A stretch of DNA of 64,000 bases from an uncultured delta proteobacterium. GTDB lineage: Bacteria; Desulfobacterota; BSN033; UBA1163. The stretch covers positions 1,777 through 65,776 of the forward strand of contig CAVTZZ010000036.1 in assembly GCA_963739325.1 (NCBI GenBank). The letters are read 5' to 3'. Both the position numbers and the translations under genes were made by a program. Position 1 is the first letter of the stretch; each line of letters opens with the position of its first letter. The notes under the pieces are model-generated. The model had not been told where the DNA came from. It searched no databases and worked only from the letters and a program-made list of their open reading frames with translations. Shown piece by piece: positions 42,685-57,872 of the stretch.

Positions 42685-43327
42685 TTATGGGTTTGATAAA
42701 AGGTAGGCCAGATTGTCAAGGATGGTGGTGAAAAAGACATCTTTCACCACAAATCCATCTGGGACTGTAATCTGTACCGGCGCAAAGTTTAGAATTCCTC
42801 TTATTTCTGCATCGACCAAGAGATCGGCTACACTCTGAGCCTCTAAAGGAGGAGCTGCAATGAGACCGATTTCGATCTTCCTTTCTTTCGCTACTTCCTT
42901 GAGTCGATTGATGTGAAGGACCTCCACGGGTTTGCCCAACTTTTCCGAAACCCTCCCGATCACTTTTGGAGGATCGATATCAAATGCCGCCACGATCTTA
43001 TAATTCTGTTTTAGAAAATCCTTGTAGGAGAGGAGGGCAGAGCCCAAATTTCCAACACCGATGAGGGCCATCCTCCACTCTTTGTTCAATCCCAATATCC
43101 GTCTAATATCGGAGAGTAGGTCTTTTACATAATACCCTACACCTCGAACTCCAAACTCACCGAAATAAGCCAAGTCTTTTCTCACCTGAGCGGCATTCAC
43201 CATGCATCTGTTGGCTAATTGCGCAGAAGAAACGACCTTTTCCCCCTTTTCATCCATCTGTTCCAAACACCTTGCATATCTCGATAATCTCCGAATGGTC
43301 GCTTCTGGAATCTTTAGAATACTTCAA
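42685..43327 (-). CDS. rex: Redox-sensing transcriptional repressor Rex; the 5' end needs a 1-nt frame correction near 43312 (or a non-canonical start)
   Basis: VSSAQLANRCMVNAAQVRKDLAYFGEFGVRGVGY (wHTH) and ALIGVGNLGSAL (Rossmann). The in-frame upstream codons read SILKIPEATIRRLSRYARCLEQ but have no start codon. A TTG at 43327 gives MKYSK in the adjacent frame, and joining the two yields MKYSK-IPEATIRRL, the canonical Rex N-terminus. Confidence 0.85.
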
Positions 43328-43329
43328 TT

Positions 43330-43347
43330 TTGTGACTCCCTTCACAA
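43330..43347. promoter_or_regulatory. Rex operator (ROP box) immediately upstream of rex
   Basis: TTGTGACTCCCTTCACAA compared with the published consensus TTGTGAA-N4-TTCACAA: 1 mismatch. A putative promoter on the minus strand has -35 TTGACA (43384-43389), a 17-nt spacer and -10 TAAATT (43361-43366), which places the box just downstream of the start site. Confidence 0.65.
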
Positions 43348-43438: not shown

Positions 43439-45574
43439 CTACTTCTTTTTGGCCAACTGTTTGATCGCTTCATCCAATCGATTATTTGCAAATTCTAATA
43501 ACTCTTCTGTATATTCGAGGTTATGGACGCCTTTCCCATTCTTCGCCAGATTATAATTAAATTCTGCCTCTCCAAACAATTTCCGATAGACAAAAGTATG
43601 TCCTCTTCGGCGATCAATCTTCTCTATCTCTTCACGGACACGATCGATCTTAGGGGCCACCTTCTTCAATAAATCCTCAGTAACCGTTTTCCACCGGACG
43701 ACCATCTCCCCATAACTCTGGTCATGACATTCGATACAACGTTTCTTAATCGCATCGAAGGTGTCCCTCTTTTTGCTACTTATACCACGATGACAATCGA
43801 TACATTCAACAACATCGAGCTTATTGCTCGGTCTCTCTTTAACACCAATGCCTCCCTTTCCCTGAACCAGTCTTTTAACAGAGACATGGCAGTCTTCACA
43901 TTTGACTTTCTTTCCCACTTTTCCATGATGGCATTCTGCACAATTCTTCTGAAATGTCTTTCCGTGGTTTTCGCGTGGGGAATGGCAGTCGGAACATCTC
44001 ATCCCGTGGCCTGCTACATGGGTGTCATGGGAAAATTTAGTATCGTTGAAGGGAACGGTCCGCCTCTCCATTCCAACATGGCAGAGGGATGTACAGGTTA
44101 AATGAGTCTTGAACTCCCGAGACTTGTAACCTTTATCGATTGCCGCCAGAGCTTGTTCGGTCTTATTATTAGCCGCATTGAGGAGTTTGAAGGCATATTC
44201 AATGTTATGAGTGCCTTTACCCAACAGGACAAAGCTGTAATTGTGGCGTGCCTCATTGAGAAGGTTTTGGGCTTTTTTGAACTCCGTGGCCTCCCCTTTA
44301 TTTCTCTCAAGATCGTATAACATCTTCTGAACATTAAAGATCCGTTGATCGGTCTCATTCTGCGCTTTTGAAAGAAGGGCTTTCCAATGTTTCAAGGTAT
44401 CATCAAACCCTTCACCATGGCAATCCACACAGGCTTTCCCGATTGCCATTTCCATATATTTTGTGGTATGAAGTGCAGCCTGACTCTCTTCACCCTTTCG
44501 ATGGCAGGCGATACAGTCGACGTTGGTGATAAACATCAGACTGGGAGAGTCAGGAACTCCAATCCCCCCTCTCCCACGGTATAACTCTCCTGGCCCCAAA
44601 TGGGTCTCCTGGCTATGGCACTTATCACAACTCGATGGGGCAGGATGAATAGTTGGAATCGTCCCAATCTCATGTCGGAGCGGGGTGTGGCAATCGGTGC
44701 ATTCGATCTTATGGTCAGTGACATGATTCTTGTGCATGAATTGAGAGGTATACTTGGTGCTCAGTATCTCTGGTTCATTATGACACTGGACACATTTTCC
44801 TTCCGGAACATGTCCATCCCCTTGAACAACACTAAGATGGCATTTCTCACAGGTAACCCCTCTTTCAATATACTTCCGATGATTGAAACTCCATCCATCA
44901 ATTTTAATATCTCCTTGTGGTGCGAAGTGACAAGAGGTGCAACTCCCTACAGCACATGAAAGGCACTCCCCTTCCCCTTTGGGACCAGCCTTGTAGTAGT
45001 GGCAGATGAAACAGTTGGTTTCATGAACGGTGAGGTGCACTCCCTGAACGAGCTGGGCGTGACAGGAGGTGCATCGAAGTTCCATCCCCCTTCTCAACTC
45101 ACCTAAATGTTTTCTGTGTGAGAATGCAACATTCTTATAAATCATATCCTTTTGTAGATCATCGACCCTGTGACAACCTTTTTGGAGGCAACTCGCATCA
45201 CTGATCTCTGCATGGGGCCTCTCTGGCGTCTTGCCAGAAATGAAATAAGCTACTGATACCTGGCCATCCACCCATTTGCCCTTCAGATGATTGAAAAAAC
45301 CAGGCTCATAGTGACATTTCGTACAGTTCACATGCTTATGACTTGAGGCCCTCCATGATGCCATATAAGTATTCATCTGGTGGCAAAGGCCACAAAAGGT
45401 TGGACTCTCTGAAAATTTAAGTAAAACTGCAGAGATAACAAGAAAGGAAATGATGCAGAAAACAAGTAAGACCTTTATTGCTTTTAGGTGGGTTTGGGTC
45501 CCTCTCTTTAACGCTTTAAAAAAATCGATCCAAAGGATTTTGACTAAATGATAATAATTTTTCAATTTCTCCAT
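43439..45574 (-). CDS. Membrane-anchored multihaem cytochrome c, NapC/NirT-type N-terminus, 16 CxxCH + CX4CH + CX3CH (paralogue B)
   Basis: 711 aa. One TM helix, then SPTFCGLCH...CTKCH. I counted 16 canonical CxxCH, plus CLQKGCH and CTSLCH. Two internal helical modules end in GxHNxEY. Confidence 0.9.
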   Translation of the reverse strand: MEKLKNYYHLVKILWIDFFKALKRGTQTHLKAIKVLLVFCIISFLVISAVLLKFSESPTFCGLCHQMNTYMASWRASSHKHVNCTKCHYEPGFFNHLKGKWVDGQVSVAYFISGKTPERPHAEISDASCLQKGCHRVDDLQKDMIYKNVAFSHRKHLGELRRGMELRCTSCHAQLVQGVHLTVHETNCFICHYYKAGPKGEGECLSCAVGSCTSCHFAPQGDIKIDGWSFNHRKYIERGVTCEKCHLSVVQGDGHVPEGKCVQCHNEPEILSTKYTSQFMHKNHVTDHKIECTDCHTPLRHEIGTIPTIHPAPSSCDKCHSQETHLGPGELYRGRGGIGVPDSPSLMFITNVDCIACHRKGEESQAALHTTKYMEMAIGKACVDCHGEGFDDTLKHWKALLSKAQNETDQRIFNVQKMLYDLERNKGEATEFKKAQNLLNEARHNYSFVLLGKGTHNIEYAFKLLNAANNKTEQALAAIDKGYKSREFKTHLTCTSLCHVGMERRTVPFNDTKFSHDTHVAGHGMRCSDCHSPRENHGKTFQKNCAECHHGKVGKKVKCEDCHVSVKRLVQGKGGIGVKERPSNKLDVVECIDCHRGISSKKRDTFDAIKKRCIECHDQSYGEMVVRWKTVTEDLLKKVAPKIDRVREEIEKIDRRRGHTFVYRKLFGEAEFNYNLAKNGKGVHNLEYTEELLEFANNRLDEAIKQLAKKK

Positions 45575-45667
45575 AAAACATACTTGCTCCAGACAAATAT
45601 TTTAACGACTTTTTATAAATGATCCCATGGAGTATTTCAAGTTGAATAGGGATTATAATTTGGAGAG

Positions 45668-47764
45668 CTACTTCTTTTTGGCCAACTCTTTGATAGCCTC
45701 ATCCAATCGATGATTAGCAAACTCCAATAATTCTTCTGTATATTCCAGGTTATGGACGCCTTTCCCATTCTTAGCTAAATTGTAATTAAATTCTGCCTCT
45801 CCGAATAATTTCCGGTAGACAAAAGTATGTCCTCTCCGGTGATCAATTTTTTCTATCTCTTCCCTGACACGATCGATTTTAGGGACCACCCTCTTTAATA
45901 AATCCTCAGAGGCCGTTTTCCACCGGACGACCATCTCACCATAACTCTGGTCATGGCATTCGATACAACGTTTCTTAATCGCATCGAATGGGTCTCTCTT
46001 TTTGGCACTCACGCCACGATGGCAATCGATACATTCGACCACATCGAGCTTATTGCTTGGCTTCTCCTTGACGCCGATGCCCCCTTTCCCTTGAACCAAT
46101 CTTTTGACCGAGACATGGCAGTCTTCGCATTTGACCTTTTTGATCTCCTTCCCGTGATGGCATTCAGCACAATTCTTCATAAACGTTTTGCCATGATTTT
46201 CACGGGGAGCATGACAGTCAGAACACTTCAGCCCTTTGCCTGCACTGTGGGTTTCATGAGAAAATTTGATGTCGTTAAAAGGGACGGTCCGCTTCTCTAT
46301 CCCAACATGGCAGAGGGTCGTACAGGTCATCTGGGTTTGAAATTCCTTTGGCTTATAATTTTTGTCGATAGCCGCGAGAGCCTGTTCAGTCTTATTGTTC
46401 GTCGCATTGAGGAGTTTGAATGCATATTCGATATTGTGAACGCCCTTCCCCAAAAGAACAAAGTTGTAATTGTGACGGGCTTCGTTGAGAAGATTTTGGG
46501 CCTTTTTGAACTCCGCGGACCCCCCTTTATTCTTCTCAAAATTGTATAACACCTTCTGAACATTAAAGATCCGTTGATCAGTCTCATTCTGTGCTTTTGA
46601 AAGGAGCGCCTTCCAATGCTTCAGTGTATCATCGTATCCCTCACCATGACAGTCCACACAGGCTTCCCCTATCGCCCTTTCAACATATTGGGTGGTATGG
46701 AGAGCAGCTTCACTCTCCTCACCCGTTCGATGGCAGGCAATACAATCCACATTCGTCGTAAACATAAGGCTTGGGGAGTCAGGAACTCCAATCCCCCCAC
46801 TCCCGCGGTATAACTCTCTCGGCCCCAAATGGATTTCCTTACTGTGGCACTTGTCACAATGGGTGGGAGAATGAACAAAGGTGAGAATCGGTCCGATCTC
46901 ATGACGAATGTAAGTGTGGCAATCTGCGCATTCGATCTTGTGGTCGGTGACATGATTCTTATGCATGAATTGAGAAGTGTATTTGGGGCTTAGTCCTTCA
47001 GGTTCCTTATGGCACTGGAGACACTTTCCTTCAGGGACATGGCCATCCCCTTTAACGACATTGATATGACACTTTTCACATGCCACCCCTCTTGCAATAT
47101 ATTTCCGATGATTGAAGCTCCAGCCTTTGACATTAATATCCCCTTTGGGCTCAATGTGGCAAGATGAACAATCACCTACGGCACACGAAATGCACTCTTC
47201 TTCCCCTCTTGGACCAGCTTGATAGAAGTGACAGACAAAACAGTTAGTTTCGTGAACAGTGAGATGGGCTCCCTGGACGAGCTGAGCATGGCAGGTGGTA
47301 CACCGGAGTTTCATTCCTCTCCTCAACTCGCCCAGATGTTTCCCATGGGGAAAGTTTACATTCTTAAATATCATATCCCTTTTTAGGTCTTCGCTTTTAT
47401 GACACCCTTTTTGCAAACAATTACCATCATCAATTTCATAATGGAGTTTCTTTATGCCTTTCCCGATAATGATATAAGTCAATGCGAGTTGGAGATCTTC
47501 CTTTTTTCCTTTGAGATGATTCAAAATACCTGGCCTGCGGTGACAACTGAGGCAGGCCACTTCATTGTGCGAGGAGGTTTCCCAAGACTCGACATATTCC
47601 TTCATATTGTGACATAGGCCACAAAATGATGGGCTTTCTGAATATTTAAAAATTCCTGCAAAAAATACTAACAAAAGCAAAAAAAGAAGGCCATAAAGAG
47701 CCTTCTTTTTACCTTTATAAAACCATTGCATTATCCTAAGTGGAAGGCTTAATAAAGGATTCAT
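45668..47764 (-). CDS. Membrane-anchored multihaem cytochrome c, NapC/NirT-type N-terminus, 16 CxxCH + CX4CH + CX3CH (paralogue A)
   Basis: Same architecture as 43439-45574. The start is placed at MNPLLSL (47764) because the longer ORF (to 47821) would overlap the upstream gene. Confidence 0.9.
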   Translation of the reverse strand: MNPLLSLPLRIMQWFYKGKKKALYGLLFLLLLVFFAGIFKYSESPSFCGLCHNMKEYVESWETSSHNEVACLSCHRRPGILNHLKGKKEDLQLALTYIIIGKGIKKLHYEIDDGNCLQKGCHKSEDLKRDMIFKNVNFPHGKHLGELRRGMKLRCTTCHAQLVQGAHLTVHETNCFVCHFYQAGPRGEEECISCAVGDCSSCHIEPKGDINVKGWSFNHRKYIARGVACEKCHINVVKGDGHVPEGKCLQCHKEPEGLSPKYTSQFMHKNHVTDHKIECADCHTYIRHEIGPILTFVHSPTHCDKCHSKEIHLGPRELYRGSGGIGVPDSPSLMFTTNVDCIACHRTGEESEAALHTTQYVERAIGEACVDCHGEGYDDTLKHWKALLSKAQNETDQRIFNVQKVLYNFEKNKGGSAEFKKAQNLLNEARHNYNFVLLGKGVHNIEYAFKLLNATNNKTEQALAAIDKNYKPKEFQTQMTCTTLCHVGIEKRTVPFNDIKFSHETHSAGKGLKCSDCHAPRENHGKTFMKNCAECHHGKEIKKVKCEDCHVSVKRLVQGKGGIGVKEKPSNKLDVVECIDCHRGVSAKKRDPFDAIKKRCIECHDQSYGEMVVRWKTASEDLLKRVVPKIDRVREEIEKIDHRRGHTFVYRKLFGEAEFNYNLAKNGKGVHNLEYTEELLEFANHRLDEAIKELAKKK

Positions 47765-47784
47765 CTTAAGTTTTTTGTAAAAAA

Positions 47785-48366
47785 TTAAGAGGAGGATTTC
47801 ACTGGGATCTTCGTATGGCATTTCATGCAGGATTCAGGTCCTCCTTGAATCGCCTCTTCATGGCACTCGATACAGGTTAATCTGCGGGGCCGGTTCGTTC
47901 CGGCTTCCATTTTTTCGTGTGCGATATTTCTATGACAATCGATGCATTTCAGCTTTGATTCTTCGACATGGAGCTTATGGGCGATCTTCATATGGTGAGT
48001 TTCTTCTATCTCTTTCCCCGCCACATGTTTATGACAAACAAGGCAATTATCATTGACTTTCTCATCGGCGTAAAAATCTCGGGGAAACAATTGACCGGGT
48101 CTTGCATGACAATTCACACAGGTCACACGGACAGGATGAGTGGCAGAGCGCGACCACATGGAGATACTGCTCTGTCTTGCATGACATGAAAGACAGATCG
48201 TCGGATGGGCAGTCAACGTGTGCCCCACCCAGATCACCAAGATGACTCCTATCAGAGTGAGGATGGGGCCGACACCAAAAATAACCCATTTTGATTTCAA
48301 TAGGAGCATGATGTTTTTGACGTTTATCGTCGACATCAACCATTTTCTCATACTCAATACTTTCAT
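47785..48366 (-). CDS. Membrane-anchored hexahaem cytochrome c (NapC/NirT/NrfH-like)
   Basis: 193 aa. TM helix, then six CxxCH (CLSCH, CVNCH, CLVCH, CIDCH, CIECH, CMKCH). Confidence 0.85.
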   Translation of the reverse strand: MKVLSMRKWLMSTINVKNIMLLLKSKWVIFGVGPILTLIGVILVIWVGHTLTAHPTICLSCHARQSSISMWSRSATHPVRVTCVNCHARPGQLFPRDFYADEKVNDNCLVCHKHVAGKEIEETHHMKIAHKLHVEESKLKCIDCHRNIAHEKMEAGTNRPRRLTCIECHEEAIQGGPESCMKCHTKIPVKSSS

Positions 48367-48378
48367 CGACTCATTCCC

Positions 48379-50634
48379 TTACGCCTTCGAAATTATGACC
48401 AAAGTATCGTTCCAGGCCTCTCCACCACCAATTGGGTCTGAATTTCCCGAGATGATGTGATTGGGTGAGATGCCATTCCCTTCTTTTTCCCACCAGACTA
48501 AATTGGTGTTAGGATCCTTACTCTTGAATCTTTTGGCGCGAGCAATATGTCCATATCCCCAATGACCGAAATTTCTTTCGATAGCGACTACTCTTGGGTG
48601 GATGCCAAAGGTTAAACGAGCATCCGTCACAAACGATCCGGTTTTTGTAGAAATTTTAATACGATCTCCTTCTTCAATATGAAGCTGTCTAGCAACATCC
48701 TTATTGAGCCAAACAGGATTTTGATGTTTGATCTCGGCCAGCCATCGAAAATTTCCTGTTCTTGGTCCCATCACATTCGGTTCAAAAGTCACGAGGACGA
48801 ACTTACCTTTAAGATCTCCATGATCTGGAATAGGTTCATAGGTGGGAAGAGGTTGAAATCCTTTCCTTCTCAAAGTCTCTGAATAAATCTCAATCTTTTT
48901 CGAAGGGGTGTTAAACCCTTTCGACTCATACGATTTGTATCTGGGTTTTACATTGGGATCGAACCAGACTCCATTCTCTTTTAAGTATTTGAAACCCCCC
49001 GCTTTTTCCAATTTCTCAATTCCTGAGGCGACCTTCTTGATATACTCTTCTGTGGAATTGAACTTGAAGTATCGCGGTAGGCTTCCACCGATCCTGTGAG
49101 CAAGCTCTATACAAATATCTGAGATCGGGACAGATTTGCCAAACGGGGGCACGATGGGCTGCTGGAGTCCAATAAAAGGAATCAAGTCCAACGCGGGAGA
49201 TGAATCGATCCTCCAGCTCTCCAAGTAGGTGGCAGTGGGGAGGACGATGTCAGCTAATGCAGCCGTTTCGGTCATATAGTTATCTGCAACCACAATATAG
49301 GGAACCAACTTTTCATTCTTCAATACTTCAGAGGTCAACCCGCTCTCAGGGTTTTTATAAGCAGGATTGGATTCATAAACGAAATAAAATTGGGGGGTTA
49401 ACTTTCCACGTTTCACCATGGAGATAAACTTCTGTGGAGTGACCCTGATCTTTTCCAAATCGAAGGCCTTCTCTTTTTGGGGAGATGGCTTTAAGTCTGG
49501 TTCTTCAAGACGGTAAGCCTTAGGAAGACAATATCCCCCTAGGCTGTCAATACCTCCTACAAGGGTATTCAAAAGGAAGATACACCTTTCATTATAGACT
49601 CCGTTCAAATGGCTACTGACACCACGGCCCGAAATGGCTACAGCAGGCATCGAGAGAGCAAATTCCTTGGCAATCCTTTCGATATCCGATGCGGCAACCC
49701 CGCTTGTCTTCTCCGCCATCTCAGGAGTAAACTGAGATAAGTGCTGTTCGATTGAAGAGATAGGGGTATTCGTCCACTTTTGGATAAAATCTTTATTGTG
49801 AAGATTAGCCTTGACGATGACATGGGCCATAGCCAAGGCTACGACTCCATCGGTTCCCGGGCTGATCGGAAACCATTCCTCGCTATTACCAGCTGTATAG
49901 GATAGCCTCACATCAAAAGTCACTAGCTTGGCCTTCTTTTGCATCCGGCCTTCAATCAATCTTCCTATGAAACCTGTGTAATATTCGTGTGTCTCGTAAA
50001 AATTGGAGCCGAAGTTGAGGATATAATGACTATTCGCTACATCAGGGACTCCCCTTTCCTCCCCCCAGGTAAGCCGTTGACCCCAGTCCCTATTACCAAA
50101 GTTGAGGCTATCCTCATTGAGGATGAGGGTTTTACCAAAGGCTTCCAAGAACCGCTCTATGATGCCATCAGGCTCGTGTTCTGATTGGAAGACGAAGTCC
50201 TCCCTCTTTCCGCTCTGATATATTGCTTTCAATCTGGACGCGATTTCACTATATGCCTTCTCCCAAGAGATCTTCTCCCATTGCCCTTTTCCTCTTTCTC
50301 CCTTCCTGATCAATGGAGAGGTCATTCGATCCGGATCATACGCCATATTCACGGCGGCCAGACCTCTGGCACATAATTTTCCGAGATTGTTGGGATGTTT
50401 TGGATTCCCTCCAATCTTCACCAGCTGATCGCCCTCTAAAAAACCGATGATTCCGCAATGGGCAGGACAAAGTTGGCAGATGCTTGAAATCCCTTTCAGG
50501 GGCTTCCCCGTATGTCGCGATACCTGTTTTCCTCCAAACACCTCCTTGGCATAGGCAGAGAGCCCAAGATAATGCTGGAACAGGAATACCTGCATGCTGA
50601 CCAGACAAAATTTCAAAAAATCGCGACGAATCAT
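48379..50634 (-). CDS. Tat-exported molybdopterin (bis-MGD) oxidoreductase catalytic subunit, Psr/Phs/Ttr/Arr-like; substrate unknown
   Basis: 751 aa. Twin-arginine MIRRDFLKF. N-terminal FS0 motif C-X2-C-X3-C-X27-C (CQLCPAHC...KLC). MopB-type domains and a C-terminal barrel. Confidence 0.88.
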   Translation of the reverse strand: MIRRDFLKFCLVSMQVFLFQHYLGLSAYAKEVFGGKQVSRHTGKPLKGISSICQLCPAHCGIIGFLEGDQLVKIGGNPKHPNNLGKLCARGLAAVNMAYDPDRMTSPLIRKGERGKGQWEKISWEKAYSEIASRLKAIYQSGKREDFVFQSEHEPDGIIERFLEAFGKTLILNEDSLNFGNRDWGQRLTWGEERGVPDVANSHYILNFGSNFYETHEYYTGFIGRLIEGRMQKKAKLVTFDVRLSYTAGNSEEWFPISPGTDGVVALAMAHVIVKANLHNKDFIQKWTNTPISSIEQHLSQFTPEMAEKTSGVAASDIERIAKEFALSMPAVAISGRGVSSHLNGVYNERCIFLLNTLVGGIDSLGGYCLPKAYRLEEPDLKPSPQKEKAFDLEKIRVTPQKFISMVKRGKLTPQFYFVYESNPAYKNPESGLTSEVLKNEKLVPYIVVADNYMTETAALADIVLPTATYLESWRIDSSPALDLIPFIGLQQPIVPPFGKSVPISDICIELAHRIGGSLPRYFKFNSTEEYIKKVASGIEKLEKAGGFKYLKENGVWFDPNVKPRYKSYESKGFNTPSKKIEIYSETLRRKGFQPLPTYEPIPDHGDLKGKFVLVTFEPNVMGPRTGNFRWLAEIKHQNPVWLNKDVARQLHIEEGDRIKISTKTGSFVTDARLTFGIHPRVVAIERNFGHWGYGHIARAKRFKSKDPNTNLVWWEKEGNGISPNHIISGNSDPIGGGEAWNDTLVIISKA

Positions 50635-50650
50635 ATCGTTTCTCCTCCCC

Positions 50651-51565
50651 TCAACTCAAAGGAACGTATTGCCCGCCGAAAACCATCACATATCTCATGA
50701 TGAATACGCCGATGGAGGCCAATATAGCAGCAATCAATAATAAGAGAAGAGATTTCCGTGTCCTCTTAAAAATAATGATGATGGAAGGGACAATGTTCCC
50801 CAAGACATTATCTACCCAGATGTATAAGAAGCTGAATTTACCAAGACGGACAAGCTCCACCGTCTCAAAGGCATCCTCAGTATGGTAATACATCACGGTG
50901 AGGTCAGAAAACACATAGAAGACATTTAGAATCATGAACCCTGCCATCCATTTTGCAAGGAGATCGATGATATTGAGATCCTTCTCCCTCTGCTCCAGGG
51001 TTTTATCGTTATATGTGAAACGGTAACGAATCAACGCTACGATGAGCATAAAGGCCATCCCGGAAATCATTGCCGAGGCCAAGAAGTAAGAAGGCATAAC
51101 AGCGGTGTTCCATAAGACCCTGGCTTTGGCGAATCCTAAGACGAAACCTGTATATCCGTGAACACCAATAGCAGTAGGGAGGCTGATGACTCCGAAAATT
51201 TTTGACCATTTCACATTGTTTTTAAATAAAAAGTAGATATAGATCCCTGTGAAGGTGGGGTAAGCGCAAAGGATGAAAGTTCCCCAACTGAGGGGCGAAG
51301 TGGGATTGAAGTGGAGGAAGAGATACCAGAAACGTAAGGGTTGAAAAAGATCGGTTAAAAGAAAGATAGGGGATATGGAAAAGAGGATGATGACAAATAT
51401 GGCTCCGATCTTCGCCACCGGTTTATATTCATTTTTTCCAAGTAAGGTGGCAGTAATCGACACGATGGAACACCCGGCATGGAGTCCAACGATGTGAAAG
51501 TAGATGGCAATCAACATGCTGACCGCTTCATAATGGAATACATTGTAGAGAACTTGTACTTCCAT
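50651..51565 (-). CDS. NrfD/PsrC-family integral membrane quinone-interacting subunit
   Basis: 304 aa, about 8 TM helices, located between the FeS and molybdopterin subunits. Confidence 0.82.
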   Translation of the reverse strand: MEVQVLYNVFHYEAVSMLIAIYFHIVGLHAGCSIVSITATLLGKNEYKPVAKIGAIFVIILFSISPIFLLTDLFQPLRFWYLFLHFNPTSPLSWGTFILCAYPTFTGIYIYFLFKNNVKWSKIFGVISLPTAIGVHGYTGFVLGFAKARVLWNTAVMPSYFLASAMISGMAFMLIVALIRYRFTYNDKTLEQREKDLNIIDLLAKWMAGFMILNVFYVFSDLTVMYYHTEDAFETVELVRLGKFSFLYIWVDNVLGNIVPSIIIIFKRTRKSLLLLLIAAILASIGVFIMRYVMVFGGQYVPLS

Positions 51566-51582
51566 AATTTTCCCTTTTTCAA

Positions 51583-52275
51583 TTATAATTTTTCATATTC
51601 CGGATGGTAGTAGTGTTTTTCCCATCCTTTTAGCGGATCAGCCACATCCTTGTCCAGGCCAATATAATAGACATTTGGATAGGTAGCCATTTCTTTTTTA
51701 AGAACTTGGACTTTCTCCTTTGAAAGCAGTTGAGACACTTTACTGCTCGGATCCTTCAAATTCCCAAATACCATTGCATTGGTTGGACAGGTCTCCACAC
51801 AGGCCGGTAGAAGTCCAGAATCAACCCGATGAACACAGAAGTCACACTTCTGGATCATACCGGTAATTGGGTTCGCGAATCTCACATTATAAGGACACGC
51901 CGCTCTACAATAGTTACAACCGATACAGCGGTGAGGATCAATCAAAACAATACCATCTTCTTTCCGCTTATAGGCAGCCCCTACTGGACATACAGTATTA
52001 CAGATAGGTCGATCGCAATGGTTACACAGCCACGGCAGGAAAAGAACAGACATTCGAGGGTACCTCGCTTCTTCGGGACGCTCACAGTATGCGCAATCCC
52101 AGGGCAATTTAAGGGTAGCCATTTCCGGGTACGTTCCTTTTTGAATGGTTTTCACCCAAATTCTCCAAACACCGAGAGGGGTCTCATGTTCAGCTTTACA
52201 CGCCACTTGGCAGGCAAAACATCCCACACAACGCTTGAGATCAATCACCATTCCCCATTTAACTTCTTTTTGCAT
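51583..52275 (-). CDS. 4Fe-4S ferredoxin-type electron-transfer subunit (PsrB/TtrB/NrfC-like)
   Basis: CVGCFACQVACK, CNHCDRPICNTVCPVGA, CIGCNYCRAACPYN, CDFCVHR...PACVETCPTNA. These are four cluster motifs. Confidence 0.9.
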   Translation of the reverse strand: MQKEVKWGMVIDLKRCVGCFACQVACKAEHETPLGVWRIWVKTIQKGTYPEMATLKLPWDCAYCERPEEARYPRMSVLFLPWLCNHCDRPICNTVCPVGAAYKRKEDGIVLIDPHRCIGCNYCRAACPYNVRFANPITGMIQKCDFCVHRVDSGLLPACVETCPTNAMVFGNLKDPSSKVSQLLSKEKVQVLKKEMATYPNVYYIGLDKDVADPLKGWEKHYYHPEYEKL

Positions 52276-52302
52276 GAAAATCTCTCCTTGAACAGTAAAG
52301 AT

Positions 52303-53136
52303 TTATTTAACCTTAGAAGTGATTTGATATTTCTTGCTGAGATCCTTATCGAAGGCAACATCTCTCACGGTATTCGAATCAAGATCTACCTCAAAATACC
52401 ATCCCTGGGTCTTATTTTTGACCCTATCTTCCTGAGTTTGATATCGAAAAGTCACAAAATATATGGCGTCACTATAGTGGTAAAAATGTGTCATGATCCC
52501 CGAGGCCTTCTCTATTTCTTTGTCGATATCATCCACCACTTTTTTTGCCTCTTCGGATAGATCTTTTGCTTTAACTATACCTTTACCTCGGGGGACTAAA
52601 TAAAACTGAATGGACACATATTCCTCTTTGAGTCTCTTAATCCTTGAAGCAAAATATTTCGGATCGTTTTCAAGGAGCAATTCGGAAGCTGGACTTCCAT
52701 CTATTAAAAAACCTAAATCTTTCAGTTTGACTAACCCTCTTTTGATCTTCTCCATAGACCCCTTGAAATCATCTATTAATCTGCCCCCGAATCTTTCGGA
52801 ATCATACAATTGACCCGAATGGATGGCACTGTCAGCTTGCCATCCAATGATTTTCACATCCCCTTTAATCTTTTCCGCTATATTTTGGGCATCCCCATAG
52901 ACTTCATCCTTTCCTCTTGCATACTTTTTCGCCAATTCTATCGCCCTCTCTTTTCTCTCCATCTCCGCTTCAAAAAATCTCTTTGTCTCTTTAGAGGGAG
53001 GCTCAACAGGAAACCTATCAAGAACAATCGATTTATAATGGTAAAAAGCCGTAATCTGATAGACAAGAAAAAGGAAAATTGCTATCGCCACTGCCAACAT
53101 TGATATCACTACAATCTTGTTACTTGTCCCCGGCAT
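52303..53136 (-). CDS. Membrane-anchored hypothetical protein, first gene of the oxidoreductase/cytochrome operon
   Basis: 277 aa with an N-terminal TM helix and a Lys/Glu-rich soluble part without Cys/His motifs. It ends 27 nt before the FeS gene. Confidence 0.45.
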   Translation of the reverse strand: MPGTSNKIVVISMLAVAIAIFLFLVYQITAFYHYKSIVLDRFPVEPPSKETKRFFEAEMERKERAIELAKKYARGKDEVYGDAQNIAEKIKGDVKIIGWQADSAIHSGQLYDSERFGGRLIDDFKGSMEKIKRGLVKLKDLGFLIDGSPASELLLENDPKYFASRIKRLKEEYVSIQFYLVPRGKGIVKAKDLSEEAKKVVDDIDKEIEKASGIMTHFYHYSDAIYFVTFRYQTQEDRVKNKTQGWYFEVDLDSNTVRDVAFDKDLSKKYQITSKVK

Positions 53137-53444
53137 CTTGCACCCGTCCCTTTCTGAAAAGGAAGATTCCTTTCTTGAATATTCCTAACCACGTCAATGA
53201 ACTAGGTTAATGTAGAGATAAACTTAACTTAGGTTACTTCTTCGAAAACCCCACCCTTATAAAATAATAACCTTCTATCACCTTTTTATTATTATTTCAA
53301 GAAAAAATATTTTTCCACAAACAAGAGACCGATTGACTTGATTTCAAACTTGAAACTTGGTAAATTTGAAATTAGAAAAATTGGAGGGGTTAGAGTTTTT
53401 ACTTTTTTTTGGTAATTCTTTCAAAGGTTTATATTGGAAGACTG

Positions 53445-54125
53445 ATGGACAAATATTTTTTATTTGATCGTAAATGGCTCCTATTGGGGATTTCAGGCTT
53501 TTGCCTCCTTCTTTTAGGGGGAAAGGCCGATCTTTTTCTCCCCAAAGAGGGAGAAGATCCAATGGAGCGGAGAGAAGAAAGATTAAAAGTATTTCGAGAA
53601 CATAAGGATCGGTTTTTTAAAGAAGACACTCACTCTCCGTTGAAGGAAACTGACCGAAAGAAATTTAAAGGTCTCCTTTACTACCCGATCAATCTTCGAT
53701 ATGCGATGACCGGACCCATTGAACGATATCCGACTGAACCCAAACCCACCTATGTCAGCCTCCCTACCAGTAAAGGAAGGGAAAAAAAATATGTGAAATA
53801 TGGTCGGTTCCGATTTAAATGGGAGGCGAAAGAATATGTACTCCAGATCTACCGGCCTTTGGGAGGTGGGGAACTTTTTCTCCCCTTCAAGGATAAAACT
53901 TCGGGAACGGATACCTATTTGGATGGTCGTTATCTCTTTATCGAACCAATCCCTGGAGGGTCGGAATCGACTCGTACCGAGAAGGTTCTGATCGATTTCA
54001 ATCGGGCCTATAATCCCTTCTGCGCCTACAATGAAAAATATACCTGCCCTTTTGCACCGAAGGAAAATTGGTTGGAGATTACTATTCCAGCAGGAGAGAA
54101 GCATTTCCCACTATCCAAAAAATAA
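53445..54125 (+). CDS. DUF1684-domain protein with signal/anchor sequence
   Basis: FKEDTHSPL, FKGLLYYPIN, YNPFCAYNEKYTCPFAPKENWL and IPAGEK are all DUF1684-typical. The start is placed at MDKYF. Confidence 0.78.
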   Translation: MDKYFLFDRKWLLLGISGFCLLLLGGKADLFLPKEGEDPMERREERLKVFREHKDRFFKEDTHSPLKETDRKKFKGLLYYPINLRYAMTGPIERYPTEPKPTYVSLPTSKGREKKYVKYGRFRFKWEAKEYVLQIYRPLGGGELFLPFKDKTSGTDTYLDGRYLFIEPIPGGSESTRTEKVLIDFNRAYNPFCAYNEKYTCPFAPKENWLEITIPAGEKHFPLSKK

Positions 54126-54179
54126 CTTTTCTTGATTTCATAATATCAATCTGGTAGATAAATCAAAGGTGGGGTTCCC

Positions 54180-55763
54180 TTGAAAATCAGAAGAGTTCCA
54201 ATCCTCTTGGTTGCGGTTCTGTTGATGGGTTTGTCTCAAACACCACTTGGTCAAACTGCACCCAAAGTCCAATTCAGTATCGTTTACACTAATGATGTAA
54301 TGGGTGAGGTCGAGCCCTGTGGGTGATTCAGGAGCCCTCTTGGTGGTATCGCCAAGAAATCGACTCTTATCTCCCAGATAAAAAAAGAGGGGAGAAAGAT
54401 CCTTCTCCTCGACACTGGAAACCTCCTCTTTCGAAAACTTCCTCAAACGGAAACCAAACGAAGAGATGCTCTTCTTCGTGTTGATCTCCTCCTTCAATCC
54501 TATAATGATATGGGATATGATGCGGTCAATGTGGGTGAGAAGGATTTGATGATGGGGCTAAAATTCCTCTCCGATCTGAGCCAAAAGGGCAAATTTCCAT
54601 TCATTTCAGCCAACCTTGTGGATAAAAAGACTCAGAAGGAAGTTTTCAAACCTTTTGTGATCAAAGAAATGGCTGGGCTGAAGATTGGGATTATTGGACT
54701 CCTGGATGACTTATACAACCCAACTCTTCAGGAAAAAGACCCTGGACTGATCATCTTAGAACCTCTATCGAGATCAAAAGCTCTGACTAAGAGCCTTAGG
54801 GAATATTGTGATGTGATCGTCGCCCTCTCCCAATTGGGCGAGTCAAAGGATAAAAAACTGGCCAGAGAAAATCACGAGATCGATCTGATTCTGGGAGGAG
54901 GGGGGGAATCCAAAAGGGCTGTCATTGAAAGGGTGAACGAAGTCCCCATTTATCGAATGGAACCAAGGGGAGGATATTTAGGTCGGATTGACTACTCCTT
55001 GGTCGATGCTAAAAAACCTGTCAAATTTATCATTACCAGTGAACGGGATGAGATGGAAAAGAGATTGGAAAGGTTGATCACCCGGTCAACACAACTTAAA
55101 TCAGAGATAGCGAAATCTGCGAAACAAGATGATATGAAGGTCAAGGAACTGAAGGTCTTGGAATCGAAACAGAAGGAATTGGAGAAGACCCTCTTGGCCT
55201 TCCAAGATAAAAATTTTTATAAACACATTTCGATCCCTGTCCAACTCTCTGTGAAGGACGATCCTAATATCATGAAGGGAGTGGAGATCTACCGAGCCGA
55301 ATCAGCAAAATTATACAAACCAAAAGTGGCGGCCCTGCCAGAAAAAGAGCTACCGGAGAAAGAGATGGTCGCCCGAATTCCTAAAGAGAGCCCTTTTATT
55401 GGAGCGATCTCTTGCAAACGATGCCACGAAACAAATTATCGAAATTGGCTGAAGACCAAGCATGCGAAGGCCTCCCAGACTATCGTCGCCTCTCCTAAAT
55501 ATGCCCAAGAGGAGTGTCTCATTTGCCACTCCACCGGTTATGGAAAGATGGGAGAATATGCCACAGTGGAAGAAATCCCTTTCTTCCTACGAGGGGTACA
55601 ATGTGAAGCCTGTCATGGGGAAGGAAAGGGACATCCTGGAAAGGGAGGAATTGAGAGAAAAGTTACCCTCGGCATCTGCCGAAACTGCCACACCAAAGAT
55701 CAGAGTCCTGTTTTTAATTACGTTGCCTATCTCGAAAAGATCGGTTGTAAAATCTCAAAATAA
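54180..55763 (+). CDS. Secreted degenerate metallophosphatase/5'-nucleotidase-like domain fused to a tetrahaem cytochrome c domain; in-frame TGA at 54324-54326 (candidate selenocysteine)
   Basis: TTG 54180 follows AGGTGGGG. The signal peptide is (M)KIRRVPILLVAVLLMGLSQTPLGQTA, followed by FSIVYTNDVMGEVEPCG-TGA-FRSPLGGIAKKSTLI. This is in the same frame as track ORF 54510-55763. The C-terminus carries CKRCH, CLICH, CEACH and CRNCH. Confidence 0.6.
54338..54357 (+). promoter_or_regulatory. SECIS-like hairpin downstream of the in-frame UGA
   Basis: UCUUGG-UGGUAUCG-CCAAGA starts 11 nt after the UGA, and its apical loop contains GGU. Flanking GAG/CUC could extend the stem across an internal loop. 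Confidence 0.35.
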
Positions 55764-55767
55764 AAAA

Positions 55768-55850
55768 GGGTTCAAGGATTCGAGTCATAGTCTAAGTGTT
55801 TCCTTTTAAGATTTTCACTCGAACCCTCGACCACTTGGCCCCTTGAATCC
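55768..55850. repeat. Stuttered hairpin locus 11, same word family as locus 10
   Basis: GGGTTCAAGGATTCGAGTC opposed to ACTCGAACCCTCGACCACTTGGCCCCTTGAATCC. Confidence 0.7.
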
Positions 55851-56009
55851 TTCCAATTTACTATCCAAGGAATTCCCACCCAATCAGGAAGACGCAGAGA
55901 AGCCCGATGGCCAGCATGGCAAATCCTACGACGGTTGAGAAAAGATCGGCCATTGCACTGGGATATTTATCCCTGATAGGTCTCCAATGTCTTCTCTGCC
56001 AACATACGC

Positions 56010-57836
56010 TTATACTGCTCCGATCCGTTCCTCCACCAGTTCATATTTGGGAAATCTTCCTGTGAAGATCACCGTATCGATCGGGAACTTCGAAGGCCGA
56101 AAATGGGTATTGAAGAAATGGACTGTAAAGATGAAGCCAGAGGCTAACAATGCCTCATCCGAATGGACGATCGTTGCAATATTGAGTATCCATCCTGGCA
56201 TGAAGATGGTGAAGAATTCCGGAAACCAGAGCATCAGTCCAGAAAGTCCGATGGCGAACATCCCCCAAAAGACAGCTAAAAAGTCGAACTTCTCCCAGTA
56301 GGTCCATCGATCAAACTGGGGTTTTGGCCCTTTGTTAAAGAACCATTGGATCATACCAATGATGTCTTGCACATCCTTCCAACGAGGGCAGAGAGAATCT
56401 GGACCAAAAAGTCGCTGGAGTGGATTGGGATTTCCTTTAATCTTTTTGAAGAAGAGGAAGTAGAAGATATAGGTGATAGTGCTGCCAAAATAGCCAAAGG
56501 TAATGGCTGCACAGATGCGATGGATTAATCCTGCCATTTTAGCCCCTCCCAGAAAATGCATCAACCCACTGGCCCAGGGCGCATGGGAGAATTTTAAAGG
56601 AAGCCCGGTGAGAACAAGACCGATGAAGGTGACCATCATGGTAAAGTGAATCACGATGTCGAAGGTACTAAATCGACGATAGATGTGACCCGCTTCATCC
56701 GGCCTCACATGTTGTGGGAAGAATATTCCTTTGGCCCTTAACTCCCTCTTCTCCCAGAAGTCTTTCCGCCACCAGAAAAAGGTATGGATCCAAAAGACTC
56801 CAAAGACAGAAACCAGGAGGCCAGTCATCAGAATGAAAGTCCCATAAAGGACTGGCTCCCGCTCTGGATCGGTATGGGTTGCATGTGCGAGCCACTGAAC
56901 GAAGTTGACATTGGCCCGTGGGTGGCACTTTCCACAGGTCTCTACCAACCGAGCCTCAGAGATAAGGGACTTTGGATTATCTGGAGGCAGAATGCTATGA
57001 AAACCATGGCAGTCCGCACAACCTGCCACCAATGAAGGATAGCCTAATTCCTCAACTTTTCCGTGGTAACTTTCATAATAGGTCTGGGTAGCAATGAGAA
57101 AAACCTTATTTCGTTCCATCATCTCGTTATCGGCATGGCACTTCTGACAGACCTCTGTATGAAACTCCTTCCGCAATGCCACCACTTTTGGCTCATCCCC
57201 CTTTAATATGGGAACCTTGTGAAGACCATGACAATCACTGCAGGTAGCAGAATCCGGGTTCCCAGCAAGGACAGATTTGCCATGGACGCTTTCAGAGTAA
57301 CCATCGTCGGAATGGCAAGTTGTGCATTTCTGGACCACTCGGGTTTTATCCCCTTTCCATGGGGTCATCTCATGGATATCTTGATGGCAGTCCTTACATT
57401 GAACATCGTTGATGAAGTGGGCGCTTGCATAATGTTCGGCCCCTTCCTTTTTATGACATCGATGGCAGGTAATTGGTTCGGCTTGGATTCTTGCCCCTTT
57501 TGCCTTCACATGGGTTTTGACGTCAGTAATGTCCCAGTGGCAACCGTTGCAGGAATTGGCTCCATGAACCGACTGTGCAAATTTCCTCTCGCTGATCTTA
57601 TTGTGGCACCCGAGACATTCCGAGTTGTCGATACACTCTAAACAATATTCTCGACCCTTAATAATAAATTTCTCCCCCTTTTTTCCGGGTTCGGGAGTTT
57701 TGGTCACCCCTTCCGGTTTAGGACTCTCTTTTTCAGCAACAGGATTTGCAGACCAAATTAATCCAAGGCTTAAAGATAGAAGAATACCAGAAATGATAAA
57801 AAAGATGAAAATTGAAATTTTAAACTTCGATTTCAT
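56010..57836 (-). CDS. CbcL-like fusion: periplasmic nonahaem cytochrome c domain + HydC/FdnI-type dihaem cytochrome b membrane domain
   Basis: A signal/anchor, then nine CxxCH, then IYRRFSTFDIVIHFTMMVTFIGLVLTGLP (the b-type cytochrome entry motif). Further TM helices carry conserved His residues (IHRICA, IVHSDEA, FTVHFFNTH). An alternative start lies at 57854. Confidence 0.82.
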   Translation of the reverse strand: MKSKFKISIFIFFIISGILLSLSLGLIWSANPVAEKESPKPEGVTKTPEPGKKGEKFIIKGREYCLECIDNSECLGCHNKISERKFAQSVHGANSCNGCHWDITDVKTHVKAKGARIQAEPITCHRCHKKEGAEHYASAHFINDVQCKDCHQDIHEMTPWKGDKTRVVQKCTTCHSDDGYSESVHGKSVLAGNPDSATCSDCHGLHKVPILKGDEPKVVALRKEFHTEVCQKCHADNEMMERNKVFLIATQTYYESYHGKVEELGYPSLVAGCADCHGFHSILPPDNPKSLISEARLVETCGKCHPRANVNFVQWLAHATHTDPEREPVLYGTFILMTGLLVSVFGVFWIHTFFWWRKDFWEKRELRAKGIFFPQHVRPDEAGHIYRRFSTFDIVIHFTMMVTFIGLVLTGLPLKFSHAPWASGLMHFLGGAKMAGLIHRICAAITFGYFGSTITYIFYFLFFKKIKGNPNPLQRLFGPDSLCPRWKDVQDIIGMIQWFFNKGPKPQFDRWTYWEKFDFLAVFWGMFAIGLSGLMLWFPEFFTIFMPGWILNIATIVHSDEALLASGFIFTVHFFNTHFRPSKFPIDTVIFTGRFPKYELVEERIGAV

Positions 57837-57872
57837 AATCCCCCCAAAATCCAAACTTGATTAATTACCAAT

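Follow-up and report, generated by a model that had tools for sequence, protein, structure and literature searches.

A conserved FeS–NrfD–MopB–cytochrome gene unit, with a MopB subunit that appears to lack the molybdenum-ligand cysteine, in a multihaem electron-transfer island of an uncultured deltaproteobacterium

We analysed a stretch of 64,000 nucleotides of DNA from an uncultured delta proteobacterium (positions 1,777 to 65,776 of contig CAVTZZ010000036.1, assembly GCA_963739325.1; hereafter the window), in which an earlier note, made from the sequence alone, had singled out a block of ten adjacent genes as a candidate respiratory or extracellular electron-transfer system. All ten open reading frames (ORFs) of this island were confirmed from the ORF list at positions 43439 to 57854 of the window, and a motif count in each protein returned exactly the 51 CxxCH haem-binding motifs (16+16+6+4+9) that had been claimed. 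When read in six frames, the island contained 52 such motifs, whereas 200 shuffled copies of it had a mean of 0.76 and a maximum of 4, and just 2 occurred in the 49.6 kb of the window outside it. In addition, the two 16-haem proteins each harbor one CX4CH motif (C129..C134-H135) and one CX3CH motif (C494..C498-H499); because these add to the 51 CxxCH motifs, the island is likely to encode about 55 sites for c-type haem. Profile searches against Pfam and NCBIfam gave domain calls that matched the earlier assignments for every module of the island. In particular, they supported the presence of a MopB-family oxidoreductase exported by the twin-arginine translocation (Tat) pathway together with its iron–sulfur (FeS) and NrfD partners (RRDFLK signal, Fer4_11 and NrfD matches). 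The assignment of three cytochromes of the NapC/NirT type with 6, 16 and 16 haems likewise held for the anchors, the family and the CxxCH counts, but has to be amended in that the two larger proteins each have the two further haem motifs.

The genes of the island lie on both strands and, together with the adjoining rex gene, form at least four transcription units. The largest is a seven-gene minus-strand operon that extends from 53136 to 43439, from a gene for an anchored hypothetical protein to the second 16-haem gene, with intergenic gaps of 12-93 nt or overlaps. The others comprise a DUF1684 gene and a gene for an UshA-like protein (plus strand, divergent from the operon), a CbcL-like gene that is convergent with these two, and rex, which has its own promoter and Rex box. 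Topology signals in the sequences, in the form of export or anchoring signals, would place all of the redox proteins of the island on the periplasmic side, and three kinds of predicted quinone-interacting module are present, namely NrfD, NrfH-like heads and the b-type domain of the CbcL-like protein. None of the island proteins reached the NCBIfam equivalog cut-offs for Psr, Phs, Ttr, Arr, Qrc or Nrf subunits. Moreover, the open-access papers and preprints that we searched contained no description of the FeS–NrfD–MopB–cytochrome unit with a ligand-less MopB or of the NrfH–OcwA fusion cytochromes set out below, and a preprint on multihaem cytochromes from peat does not treat the combination found here. 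The proposal that the combination is undescribed is thus upheld by both kinds of search. The related proposal, that the modules stem from separate systems and make up no described whole, stands insofar as no characterised system has this combination, but known counterparts exist for each module: cytochrome-bearing complexes of the NrfCD type (as in Qrc, alternative complex III (ACIII), Nrf and Mcc), NrfH, OcwA/NrfA, CbcL and the family NF041198.

Within the operon, four consecutive minus-strand genes encode an FeS protein, an NrfD protein, MopB and a membrane-anchored cytochrome. The FeS subunit (51583..52275) has four complete [4Fe-4S] cysteine motifs and an extra CxxC pair, 18 cysteines in all, and matches Fer4_11 with 111.5 bits; its best NCBIfam matches, to TtrB (217 bits, cut-off 416), DsrO (178) and NrfC (178), are all below cut-off. 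Since it has no signal peptide of its own, it is presumably exported together with MopB. (The extra pair, C61 and C64, is additional to the 16 cluster cysteines and is located in an insert that separates the first cluster motif from the second.) The integral membrane subunit, of NrfD/PsrC type (50651..51565, 304 aa; Pfam NrfD, 136.9 bits), has weak matches in the PDB to PsrC and to chain C of 8K9E, which was deposited as 'Polysulphide reductase NrfD'; reading of the sequence suggested eight hydrophobic helices, and a crude hydropathy scan gave six peaks. MopB (48379..50634) resembles PsrA and carries, besides the RRDFLK signal, the CxxCxxxC...C motif of the cluster designated FS0. The fourth subunit (47785..48366) is a predicted membrane-anchored hexahaem cytochrome that resembles NrfH with two extra haems: it has six CxxCH motifs, matches PF03264 with 34.6 bits, and finds NrfH (2J7A_C, E=7.6e-7) as its best PDB match, with the alignment spanning almost the whole of NrfH.

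The order FeS, NrfD, MopB, anchored multihaem cytochrome was found in all eight lineages that we examined, comprising the clade of the window, a clade with about 55% identity, Anaerolineales, two chromosome-scale contigs, and metagenome-assembled genomes (MAGs) of Acidobacteriota, KSB1 and Chloroflexi. In every locus whose downstream side is present, the anchored multihaem gene directly follows the MopB gene, and in the cytochromes concerned the first CxxCH comes straight after the N-terminal membrane helix, with the number of haem motifs ranging from 5 to 16. These findings demonstrate that the FeS protein, NrfD, MopB and an anchored NapC/NirT-type cytochrome make up a conserved and widespread four-gene unit. 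The cytochrome is the variable end of this unit, because in an Anaerolineales MAG (locus L009, 5260-6936; related loci are given L numbers) it takes the form of a 558-aa fusion with 16 motifs in which an NrfH-like hexahaem part is joined to two class I cytochrome c domains and eight further CxxCH. NrfD, conversely, is strongly conserved: among those close relatives that carry the unit, median identities are 93% for NrfD and for the FeS subunit, 82% for MopB and 80% for the hexahaem cytochrome, and NrfD, at 90-95% identity in these relatives, is still 79-80% identical in the lineage whose MopB has fallen to 56%. In Psr, Phs and Ttr enzymes the membrane anchor is usually the least conserved subunit, so the pattern seen here would be the reverse. 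On one of the chromosome-scale contigs (L121, 10791-13162) the unit is directly followed by genes for a NarI-like dihaem b protein and a CCG-domain FeS protein similar to HdrD and DsrK; this arrangement resembles DsrMK and HmcEF and by analogy would provide the complex with a cytoplasmic outlet.

The closest solved relative of MopB is PsrA of Thermus thermophilus (2VPW), to which it is 27% identical. An AlphaFold2 model with a mean predicted local distance difference test (pLDDT) score of 87.6 has the full four-domain fold of PsrA, and a Foldseek search with it returned PsrA first (TM-score 0.82) and ArrA next. In the alignment, Asn178 of MopB takes the place of PsrA Cys173, which we take to be the molybdenum (Mo) ligand. 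In 113 close MopB homologues (PsrA itself excepted) this column is never cysteine: it holds N in 45, H in 35, Y in 12, D in 11 and S in 6, with G, R, Q and F among the others, and it is hypervariable to the point that N, H, Y, D, S and G replace one another even between MopBs more than 70% identical. The four cysteines of FS0 are invariant in the same homologues. To place this loss in a wider setting, we drew on an exhaustive search of 1.84 billion cluster representatives and a neighbor-joining tree of 131 sequences, in which the MopB of the window falls into a monophyletic group of 51 representatives (clustered at 50% identity), none of which has cysteine at the ligand column. SLCSGNRR is kept in the sister group, which is made up of Planctomycete-type proteins; we examined a single locus of this group (L025), and there the MopB gene has MobA and MoeA genes nearby and is accompanied by neither an NrfD gene nor a cytochrome gene. 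A profile search with 16 divergent members of the group yielded a further 107 full-length MopBs, from MAGs labelled Chloroflexi, Dehalococcoidales, Nitrospinae, Acidobacteriota, Binatia, KSB1 and Thermodesulfobacteriota. The ligand cysteine was again found in none of the 107, and the five that we checked individually all had Tat signals and complete FS0 motifs. As judged from these alignments, then, MopB is without a Mo-ligand cysteine throughout the clade. The earlier description of this protein as a bis-molybdopterin guanine dinucleotide oxidoreductase accordingly keeps its MopB fold, its Tat signal and its FS0, but the protein is not a conventional member of that class, given that Asn178 replaces the ligand cysteine.

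The names under which members of the clade are deposited, such as 'thiosulfate reductase/polysulfide reductase chain A' (Joint Genome Institute, JGI), 'anaerobic selenocysteine-containing dehydrogenase' and 'molybdopterin-dependent oxidoreductase', imply known enzymes, whereas the NCBIfam scores of MopB fall far below the cut-offs of the families concerned (PhsA, 318.8 against 694; QrcB, 166.6 against 440; ArrA, 145.6 against 1600; TtrA, 114.9 against 1750). We also considered whether the clade might be QrcB. When run on ten of its representatives, the QrcB model gave 152-248 bits (cut-off 440), and PhsA was the best match each time; we therefore rejected this assignment.

The two largest proteins of the island are encoded at the end of the operon. 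MHC16b (45668..47821, minus strand) and MHC16a (43439..45574, minus strand) are 79% identical, and each has the 16 CxxCH, one CX4CH and one CX3CH motifs described above; all 18 haem motifs of MHC16a are invariant in 37 homologues. Together with the hexahaem cytochrome, these proteins match PF03264 with 34.6-35.0 bits (cut-off 24.1), and each of the three has a single N-terminal hydrophobic segment. In both 16-haem proteins the first motif is CxxCHxM. MHC16a has the highest score of the three against the NrfH model TIGR03153, at 61.6 bits, which is below the cut-off of 134.2, so none of them is an NrfH equivalog. Behind its NrfH-like head, MHC16a, like MHC16b, has a c3/c7-like stretch followed by two modules of OcwA/NrfA type. 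Residues 231-474 match OcwA (PDB 6I5B) over haems 5-9 and the three-helix bundle (E=8e-14), and an internal repeat aligns residues 277-481 with 512-709 (E=3e-31), each module ending in a helical bundle. The invariant H325 aligns with the first histidine of the His-His pair over haem 5 of OcwA, the second being replaced by leucine. We based the fold assignment on the sequence matches to OcwA and NrfH. OcwA is the nine-haem terminal reductase of Thermincola, belongs structurally with NrfA, c554 and MccA, and has two haems with open coordination (PMC6703420). MHC16a also contains an invariant CxxC that lacks a following histidine (C204 and C207; the same positions in MHC16b) and that directly precedes a haem motif (ECLSCAVGSCTSCH). 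From its sequence, this pair may form a disulfide, a metal site or an unusual haem attachment. In MccA, a relative of OcwA, cysteine residues hold copper at the active site.

On the other side of the operon, the minus-strand gene at 56010..57854 encodes a protein of the CbcL/MtrH/MtoC kind, in which a nine-haem periplasmic domain (nine CxxCH) is fused to a b-type cytochrome membrane domain (PF01292, 30.7 bits against a cut-off of 30.1; FdnI-like, 24.5 bits) whose hydrophobic segments lie in the C-terminal half. This architecture agrees with that of CbcL, a nine-haem c domain fused to a HydC/FdnI-like dihaem b membrane domain (PMC6295460), and the view that the protein is a CbcL-like fusion holds at the level of its architecture.

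The UshA-like protein (54180..55763, plus strand) appears to be a secreted selenoprotein that joins a metallophosphatase-fold domain to a c554/OcwA-like tetrahaem domain, with PDB matches to 5'-nucleotidases, cytochrome c554 and OcwA. Its start is the TTG at 54180, behind a Shine-Dalgarno-like GGTGGGG, and not 54510; within the reading frame so defined, a TGA at 54324-54326 falls inside the PCG-U motif (EPCG-TGA), and a hairpin of eight pairs starts 14 nt after it. The profile of the curated family NF041198, 'UshA-like (seleno)protein', gave 368.1 bits (cut-off 275) even without the N-terminal 103 profile positions. The selenocysteine (Sec) that had been suspected in this tetrahaem fusion is, on these grounds, real. 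Because the TNDxHxH metal motif of 5'-nucleotidases here reads TNDVMGE and is followed a few residues later by the Cys-Gly-Sec triplet, a dimetal hydrolase fold may have been converted to a thiol/selenol redox site fed by the tetrahaem domain. At the level tested, both the CbcL-like and the UshA-like protein fit known families. Between the UshA-like gene and the operon lies the gene for a DUF1684 protein (53409..54125, plus strand; PF07920, 143 bits) with an N-terminal hydrophobic segment, whose solved relatives are solely structural-genomics entries of unknown function. The first gene of the operon (52303..53136, minus strand) encodes the anchored hypothetical protein, of 277 aa, which has a hydrophobic segment at residues 8-26 and no cysteines and found no match in Pfam, NCBIfam or PDB sequence searches.

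To determine which parts of the island travel together, we used MopB as a query against species-representative genomes and the 16-haem protein as a query that returned 80 metagenome loci, and mapped the proteins of the window onto all of the loci found. The close homologues all come from uncultured bacteria, in records labelled as Syntrophaceae, Thermodesulfobacteriota, Desulfobacterales or Deltaproteobacteria MAGs. Sixty-seven loci were informative, in that their left side was informative. These loci share a backbone in the order ABC-F, zinc-ribbon, CbcL-like, [UshA-like], [DUF1684], MHC16a, Rex, aminotransferase (the bracketed genes are each absent from some loci). The remaining genes of the island (the hypothetical, FeS, NrfD, MopB, hexahaem and MHC16b genes) form a cassette: 49 of the 67 loci have the backbone without it, 16 have it, and 2 carry another gene at that position. 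The anchored hypothetical protein keeps its place in the cassette-bearing relatives, where it is 77-90% identical, and is absent from the distant loci L116, L118 and L009. In nearly all cassette loci the MHC16b gene comes after the hexahaem gene, and at one genome locus (L006) the cassette occurs without any 16-haem gene. An MHC16a copy follows in ten of the cassette loci (as in the window, L001, L048, L058 and L095) and not in six; the cassette is directly upstream of it in nine of the ten, and in the tenth (L055) two DUF1684 genes intervene. Because the cassette is absent from 49 of the 67 loci, the 16-haem protein must be able to work alone, presumably as a self-contained quinol-oxidising cytochrome.

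A second lineage bears on the same question. In loci L116-L119, whose MopBs are 55-57% identical to that of the window, CbcL-like (70% identical), UshA-like, DUF1684, FeS, NrfD, MopB and hexahaem genes are clustered, in L118 with a 16-haem cytochrome gene in addition, and both the gene order and the flanking genes differ from those of the window; the DUF1684 gene adjoins families of the island in both lineages. Since the families co-occur in spite of the rearranged order, functional linkage rather than inherited synteny is indicated, and the gene families of the island are probably functionally linked. The picture of the ten genes as one system is thus borne out only in part: the block is split in relatives, most of which lack the cassette, yet its families cluster again in another order in the second lineage. 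(The clusters of that lineage end with a small two-helix membrane protein, L116 13857-14111, 84 aa, and L118 15035-15406, 123 aa, with the shared pattern WWT.Y..FL...ML.MCIAY..R..WYRLK; we saw no counterpart of it in the window.)

The subunit composition of the four-gene unit invites comparison with several known complexes. QrcABCD is made up of the same four kinds of subunit, namely an anchored multihaem cytochrome, a MopB protein that departs from the norm, a four-cluster FeS protein and a protein of the NrfD family; its redox subunits are all exposed to the periplasm, and it connects cytochromes c with menaquinone (PMC6303296, PMC13059093). QrcB, however, is devoid of any cofactors, whereas the MopB of the unit keeps the FS0 cysteines and cofactor-type motifs; QrcD has 10 helices as opposed to 8 in NrfD; the gene order differs; the cytochrome of the unit is NrfH-like; and the scores against the Qrc equivalogs are far from the cut-offs (QrcA, 18.1/180; QrcB, 166.6/440; QrcC, 124.2/400; QrcD, 50.5/570). 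ACIII (ActABCDEF) is likewise an NrfD-type complex with a MopB-like domain without Mo-bis-pyranopterin guanine dinucleotide (bisPGD) and with c-type cytochromes, which passes electrons from quinol to periplasmic acceptors (PMC10100899, PMC8076601). In contrast to the unit, with its separate MopB and FeS genes and its single NrfD gene, ACIII has two NrfD-like subunits and a MopB–FeS fusion, ActB, in which FS0 is lost and the cofactor motifs are degraded. Indeed, ActB was absent among the top 50 fold matches of MopB, and ActB-like fusions (L032-L035) are only 25-27% identical to it. In sequence and fold the closest systems are PsrABC and PhsABC, which share the Tat signal, FS0, the four-cluster FeS partner and the eight-helix membrane anchor; the unit differs from them in that the Mo-ligand cysteine is missing across the clade, an anchored cytochrome is an obligatory fourth subunit, and conservation is highest in the membrane subunit and not in the catalytic one. 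In NrfABCD and MccACD, FeS and NrfD proteins pass electrons from quinol via a small multihaem protein to modules of the NrfA family that have a C-terminal three-helix bundle (PMC8076601, PMC6703420). Unlike those systems, which have no MopB, the unit has one, and the NrfA-type modules of the island lack CxxCK, are duplicated and are fused to an NrfH-like membrane head. Considered together with these comparisons, the unit is an apparently undescribed variant of the quinone:cytochrome complexes of the Qrc, ACIII and Nrf type.

The cytochromes outside the unit have counterparts of their own. Residues 231-474 of MHC16a share the GIG-PDSPS and GxHN motifs of OcwA (6I5B), and the tetrahaem domain of the UshA-like protein matches OcwA and c554 too; OcwA, however, is a soluble nine-haem protein of a Gram-positive cell surface, whereas the MHC16 proteins are predicted to be anchored in the inner membrane and have 18 sites and two copies of the module. 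In Geobacter sulfurreducens, a nine-haem/b-type fusion, CbcL, is similarly paired in the inner membrane with ImcH, a multihaem quinol oxidase related to NapC/NirT (PMC6295460); ImcH has 7 haems, and the NapC/NirT-type proteins of the island have 6 and 18 haem sites.

The reading that we favour, and that we consider to have slightly better than an even chance of being right, is that the island encodes a modular, periplasm-facing electron-transfer system on the menaquinone pool, built around a four-subunit NrfCD-type core in which MopB would serve as a relay and not as a Cys-ligated Mo reductase. The core complex would consist of the eight-helix NrfD protein, the four-cluster FeS protein, the ligand-less PsrA-like MopB with FS0 and the NrfH-like hexahaem cytochrome, whose association we infer; the two paralogues with about 18 haems would be added to it, with the CbcL-like protein, the UshA-like Sec/tetrahaem protein and the DUF1684 protein beside them. 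By analogy with Qrc, ACIII and NrfBCD, for which a path between quinol and haems has been described (PMC6303296, PMC13059093, PMC8076601), electrons could move in either direction between menaquinol and the hexahaem protein, by way of NrfD, the four FeS clusters and FS0. The NrfH-like heads and the CbcL-like protein could act as parallel entries at which quinol is oxidised, and the 18-site cytochromes would extend the chain and may hold reactive haems. The final chemistry would then be carried out by haems in the OcwA-type modules, by the UshA-like protein or on an unlinked partner, and not by a Cys-ligated Mo centre of the Psr, Phs or Ttr kind. Qrc and ACIII provide the precedent for cytochrome-bearing NrfCD complexes with a non-catalytic MopB (PMC6303296, PMC13059093, PMC10100899).

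Several observations weigh against this reading. The analogy with Qrc is only architectural, because QrcB is cofactor-free and QrcD has 10 helices. For MHC16a, an AlphaFold2 model built with 37 homologues is poor (pLDDT 49.4), with the helical inserts alone confident. Further, motifs that are conserved in Cys-bearing relatives are kept in MopB. Among 50 Cys-bearing relatives, 52 columns are at least 85% conserved; 33 of these are kept at that level in the Cys-less clade, and only 3 drop below 50%, one of which is the ligand itself. The GSNxxE, DxR and PGTD motifs and the residues D462, P466 and E472 are identical to those of the Cys-bearing sister and altered in the ActB-like MopB–FeS fusions L032-L035. 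In addition, the Pfam scores of MopB equal those of the Cys-bearing sister protein; for that reason a bisPGD cofactor may still be present in MopB and could support catalysis with no ligand from the protein, as in AioA and IdrA (PMC10100899). A first reading of MopB as cofactor-less, in the manner of QrcB and ActB, was weakened by this control, since most of those columns persist in the clade and only the ActB-like fusions show them degraded. Because these columns and the cofactor-type motifs are retained, we call the protein ligand-less and not cofactor-less.

These same observations underlie the strongest alternative, namely that MopB is a working Mo/tungsten (W)-bisPGD enzyme of the Psr/Phs lineage that has no protein ligand, as in the arsenite oxidase AioA and the iodate reductase IdrA, and that acts on a periplasmic substrate as a terminal reductase or oxidase linked to the haem network and the quinone pool. 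We regard this alternative as possible and, on balance, doubtful. In its favor, the cofactor-type motifs, FS0 and the Tat signal are kept across the deep clade as in the Cys-bearing sister and unlike in the ActB-like fusions, and the confident model predicts a PsrA-like four-domain fold. Cytochromes of the NapC/NirT family are, furthermore, the usual electron donors to periplasmic MopB enzymes (TorC-TorA, DorC-DorA, NapC-NapAB). AioA and IdrA set the precedent for a Mo site without a protein ligand, but they carry a [3Fe-4S] FS0 and belong to a different clade (PMC10100899), whereas here the four FS0 cysteines are invariant. The ligand residue, moreover, varies freely between MopBs that are more than 70% identical, and nothing specific is therefore selected at that position. 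MopB evolves faster than NrfD and the FeS subunit; neither Mo-cofactor genes nor a gene for a dedicated chaperone lie near the MopB gene of the window, unlike at the sister locus examined; and a cytochrome subunit whose haem number varies between 5 and 16 is more suggestive of a variable output end. Were MopB nonetheless catalytic, the unit would represent a widespread new class of respiratory enzyme, with a ligand-free Mo/W-bisPGD centre of the Psr lineage connected on one side with the quinone pool, via NrfD, and on the other with an anchored multihaem chain, and either carrying out a new periplasmic redox reaction or energetically coupling the two routes; we advance this only as a tentative proposal. 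The MAG labels of uncultured anaerobes with the unit or its MopB clade include Syntrophaceae, Chloroflexi, Acidobacteriota, Nitrospinae, KSB1 and Binatia.

The island could also be one half, in the inner membrane and the periplasm, of a pathway for extracellular electron transfer, with Fe(III), humics or a syntrophic partner as the acceptor and the outer-membrane conduit encoded elsewhere; this view overlaps with the relay reading favored above and specifies the acceptor, and we think it rather unlikely. In Geobacter and Shewanella, electrons enter the extracellular route at the inner membrane through quinol oxidases of the CbcL and NapC/NirT types (PMC6295460), and the solved protein nearest to the MHC16 modules, OcwA, is a terminal reductase of the cell surface (PMC6703420). 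In addition, the names under which related contigs are recorded presumably refer to metagenomes of anoxic sediment, peat and aquifers. However, OcwA also reduces soluble nitrite and hydroxylamine (PMC6703420), so a soluble periplasmic acceptor is equally possible, and the three large cytochromes are all predicted to be anchored in the inner membrane. To look for a conduit, we considered the 31 flanking ORFs of at least 111 aa. Thirty of these, of at least 150 aa, lie on the 5' side (20 scanned against Pfam, with direct reading of a 403-aa ORF that had no family match, and 10 only listed), and on the 3' side there is a single ORF, of 111 aa, whose sequence we read; they are mostly housekeeping genes and transporters, and neither a cytochrome nor an outer-membrane barrel was found among them. 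Of the about 120 related loci that we examined, none for which we had a gene table has an outer-membrane conduit, a beta-barrel gene or an outer-membrane cytochrome gene beside it. The observation that the window has no porin–cytochrome barrel gene is thus confirmed for the flanking ORFs scanned or read, and the suggestion of extracellular electron transfer itself finds no linked outer-membrane component either here or in the related loci with gene tables, and was not sustained.

A further alternative is that the ten genes belong to independent systems, with no function in common, that came to lie side by side by chance on a conserved chromosomal segment. This would fit with the presence of the cassette in just 16 of the 67 informative loci, with the absence of the UshA-like or the DUF1684 gene from some of them, and with the arrangement in at least four transcription units with a Rex box before rex only. 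Nevertheless, we judge it improbable, given that the families cluster again in the second lineage, where MopB is 56% identical and the order and the flanks have changed, and where inherited synteny alone is hard to invoke. The weakest alternative, a conventional PsrABC, PhsABC or TtrABC reductase that merely lies beside unrelated cytochrome genes, accords with PsrA as the best match in sequence and fold, PhsA and TtrB as the top NCBIfam matches and the names that JGI gives to the homologues, but is highly improbable, and was rejected as an assignment, because the Mo-ligand cysteine is gone in the whole clade and the equivalog scores are far under the cut-offs (PhsA 319/694, TtrA 115/1750, TtrB 217/416), and it has against it, too, the anchored cytochrome gene that follows the MopB gene in every lineage examined.

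Our findings have consequences for how such loci are annotated. Because the ligand cysteine is lost and the cytochrome is always present, any respiration of sulfur compounds deduced from members of this MopB clade is probably in error in many studies based on MAGs. The NrfD complexes that couple to quinone and include cytochromes are few (Qrc, ACIII, Nrf, Mcc and Hmc/Nhc), and the unit adds another type to them. Moreover, with its FS0 and a cofactor cleft that, unlike those of Qrc and ACIII, looks intact, it could be an intermediate on the way from a molybdoenzyme to an electron-transfer scaffold, or else a ligand-less Mo enzyme. The NrfH–OcwA fusions with 18 sites and the Sec-containing UshA-like cytochrome are abundant in metagenomes of what we take to be anoxic sediments.

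The sequences between and beside the genes of the island point to putative regulatory elements. Upstream of the operon, in the intergenic region 53137-53408, lies a promoter-like element on the minus strand (53271..53307; TTTTTTCTTGAAAT, 15 nt, GTGATAGAA), about 135 nt before the first gene. An alignment of intergenic regions revealed that this element is kept in nine related loci as TTTTTTCTTG[A/C]AAT ... GTG[A/T]TAGAA, and it occurs a single time in the window. It is followed by a long leader with the conserved blocks GGGTGGGG and GGTTAGGAATATTCAAAGAAGGA, and this conserved leader could be a regulatory RNA or a protein-binding site. An Rfam scan of the window identified one tRNA only (30716-30788, minus strand).

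The gene for the redox-sensing repressor Rex lies next to the operon (42685..43266, minus strand; the homologue at L001 matches PF06971 and PF02629) and is a conserved neighbor in the lineage of the window only. In the 172-bp gap just upstream of it we identified a Rex box (TTGTGACTCCCTTCACAA; 43330-43347, plus strand), with one mismatch to the consensus, and sequence matches to the -35 and -10 elements of a promoter (43389-43361, minus strand); the position of the box before rex suggests autoregulation. A consensus scan found no comparable Rex box before any other transcription unit of the island (the operon, the DUF1684 gene with the UshA-like gene, and the CbcL-like gene), and its total was at the level of chance (5 sites found, 4.6 expected). 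We had considered whether Rex ties the island together, and rejected the idea because the sole convincing site precedes rex itself and the overall count is that expected by chance.

One of the flanking ORFs, which is unrelated to the island, encodes a protein of 403 aa (26785-27996, minus strand) that has no Pfam match at E<=1e-5 and whose ELLQNALDEE...GRGIT stretch recalls ATPases of the GHKL/Bergerat fold.

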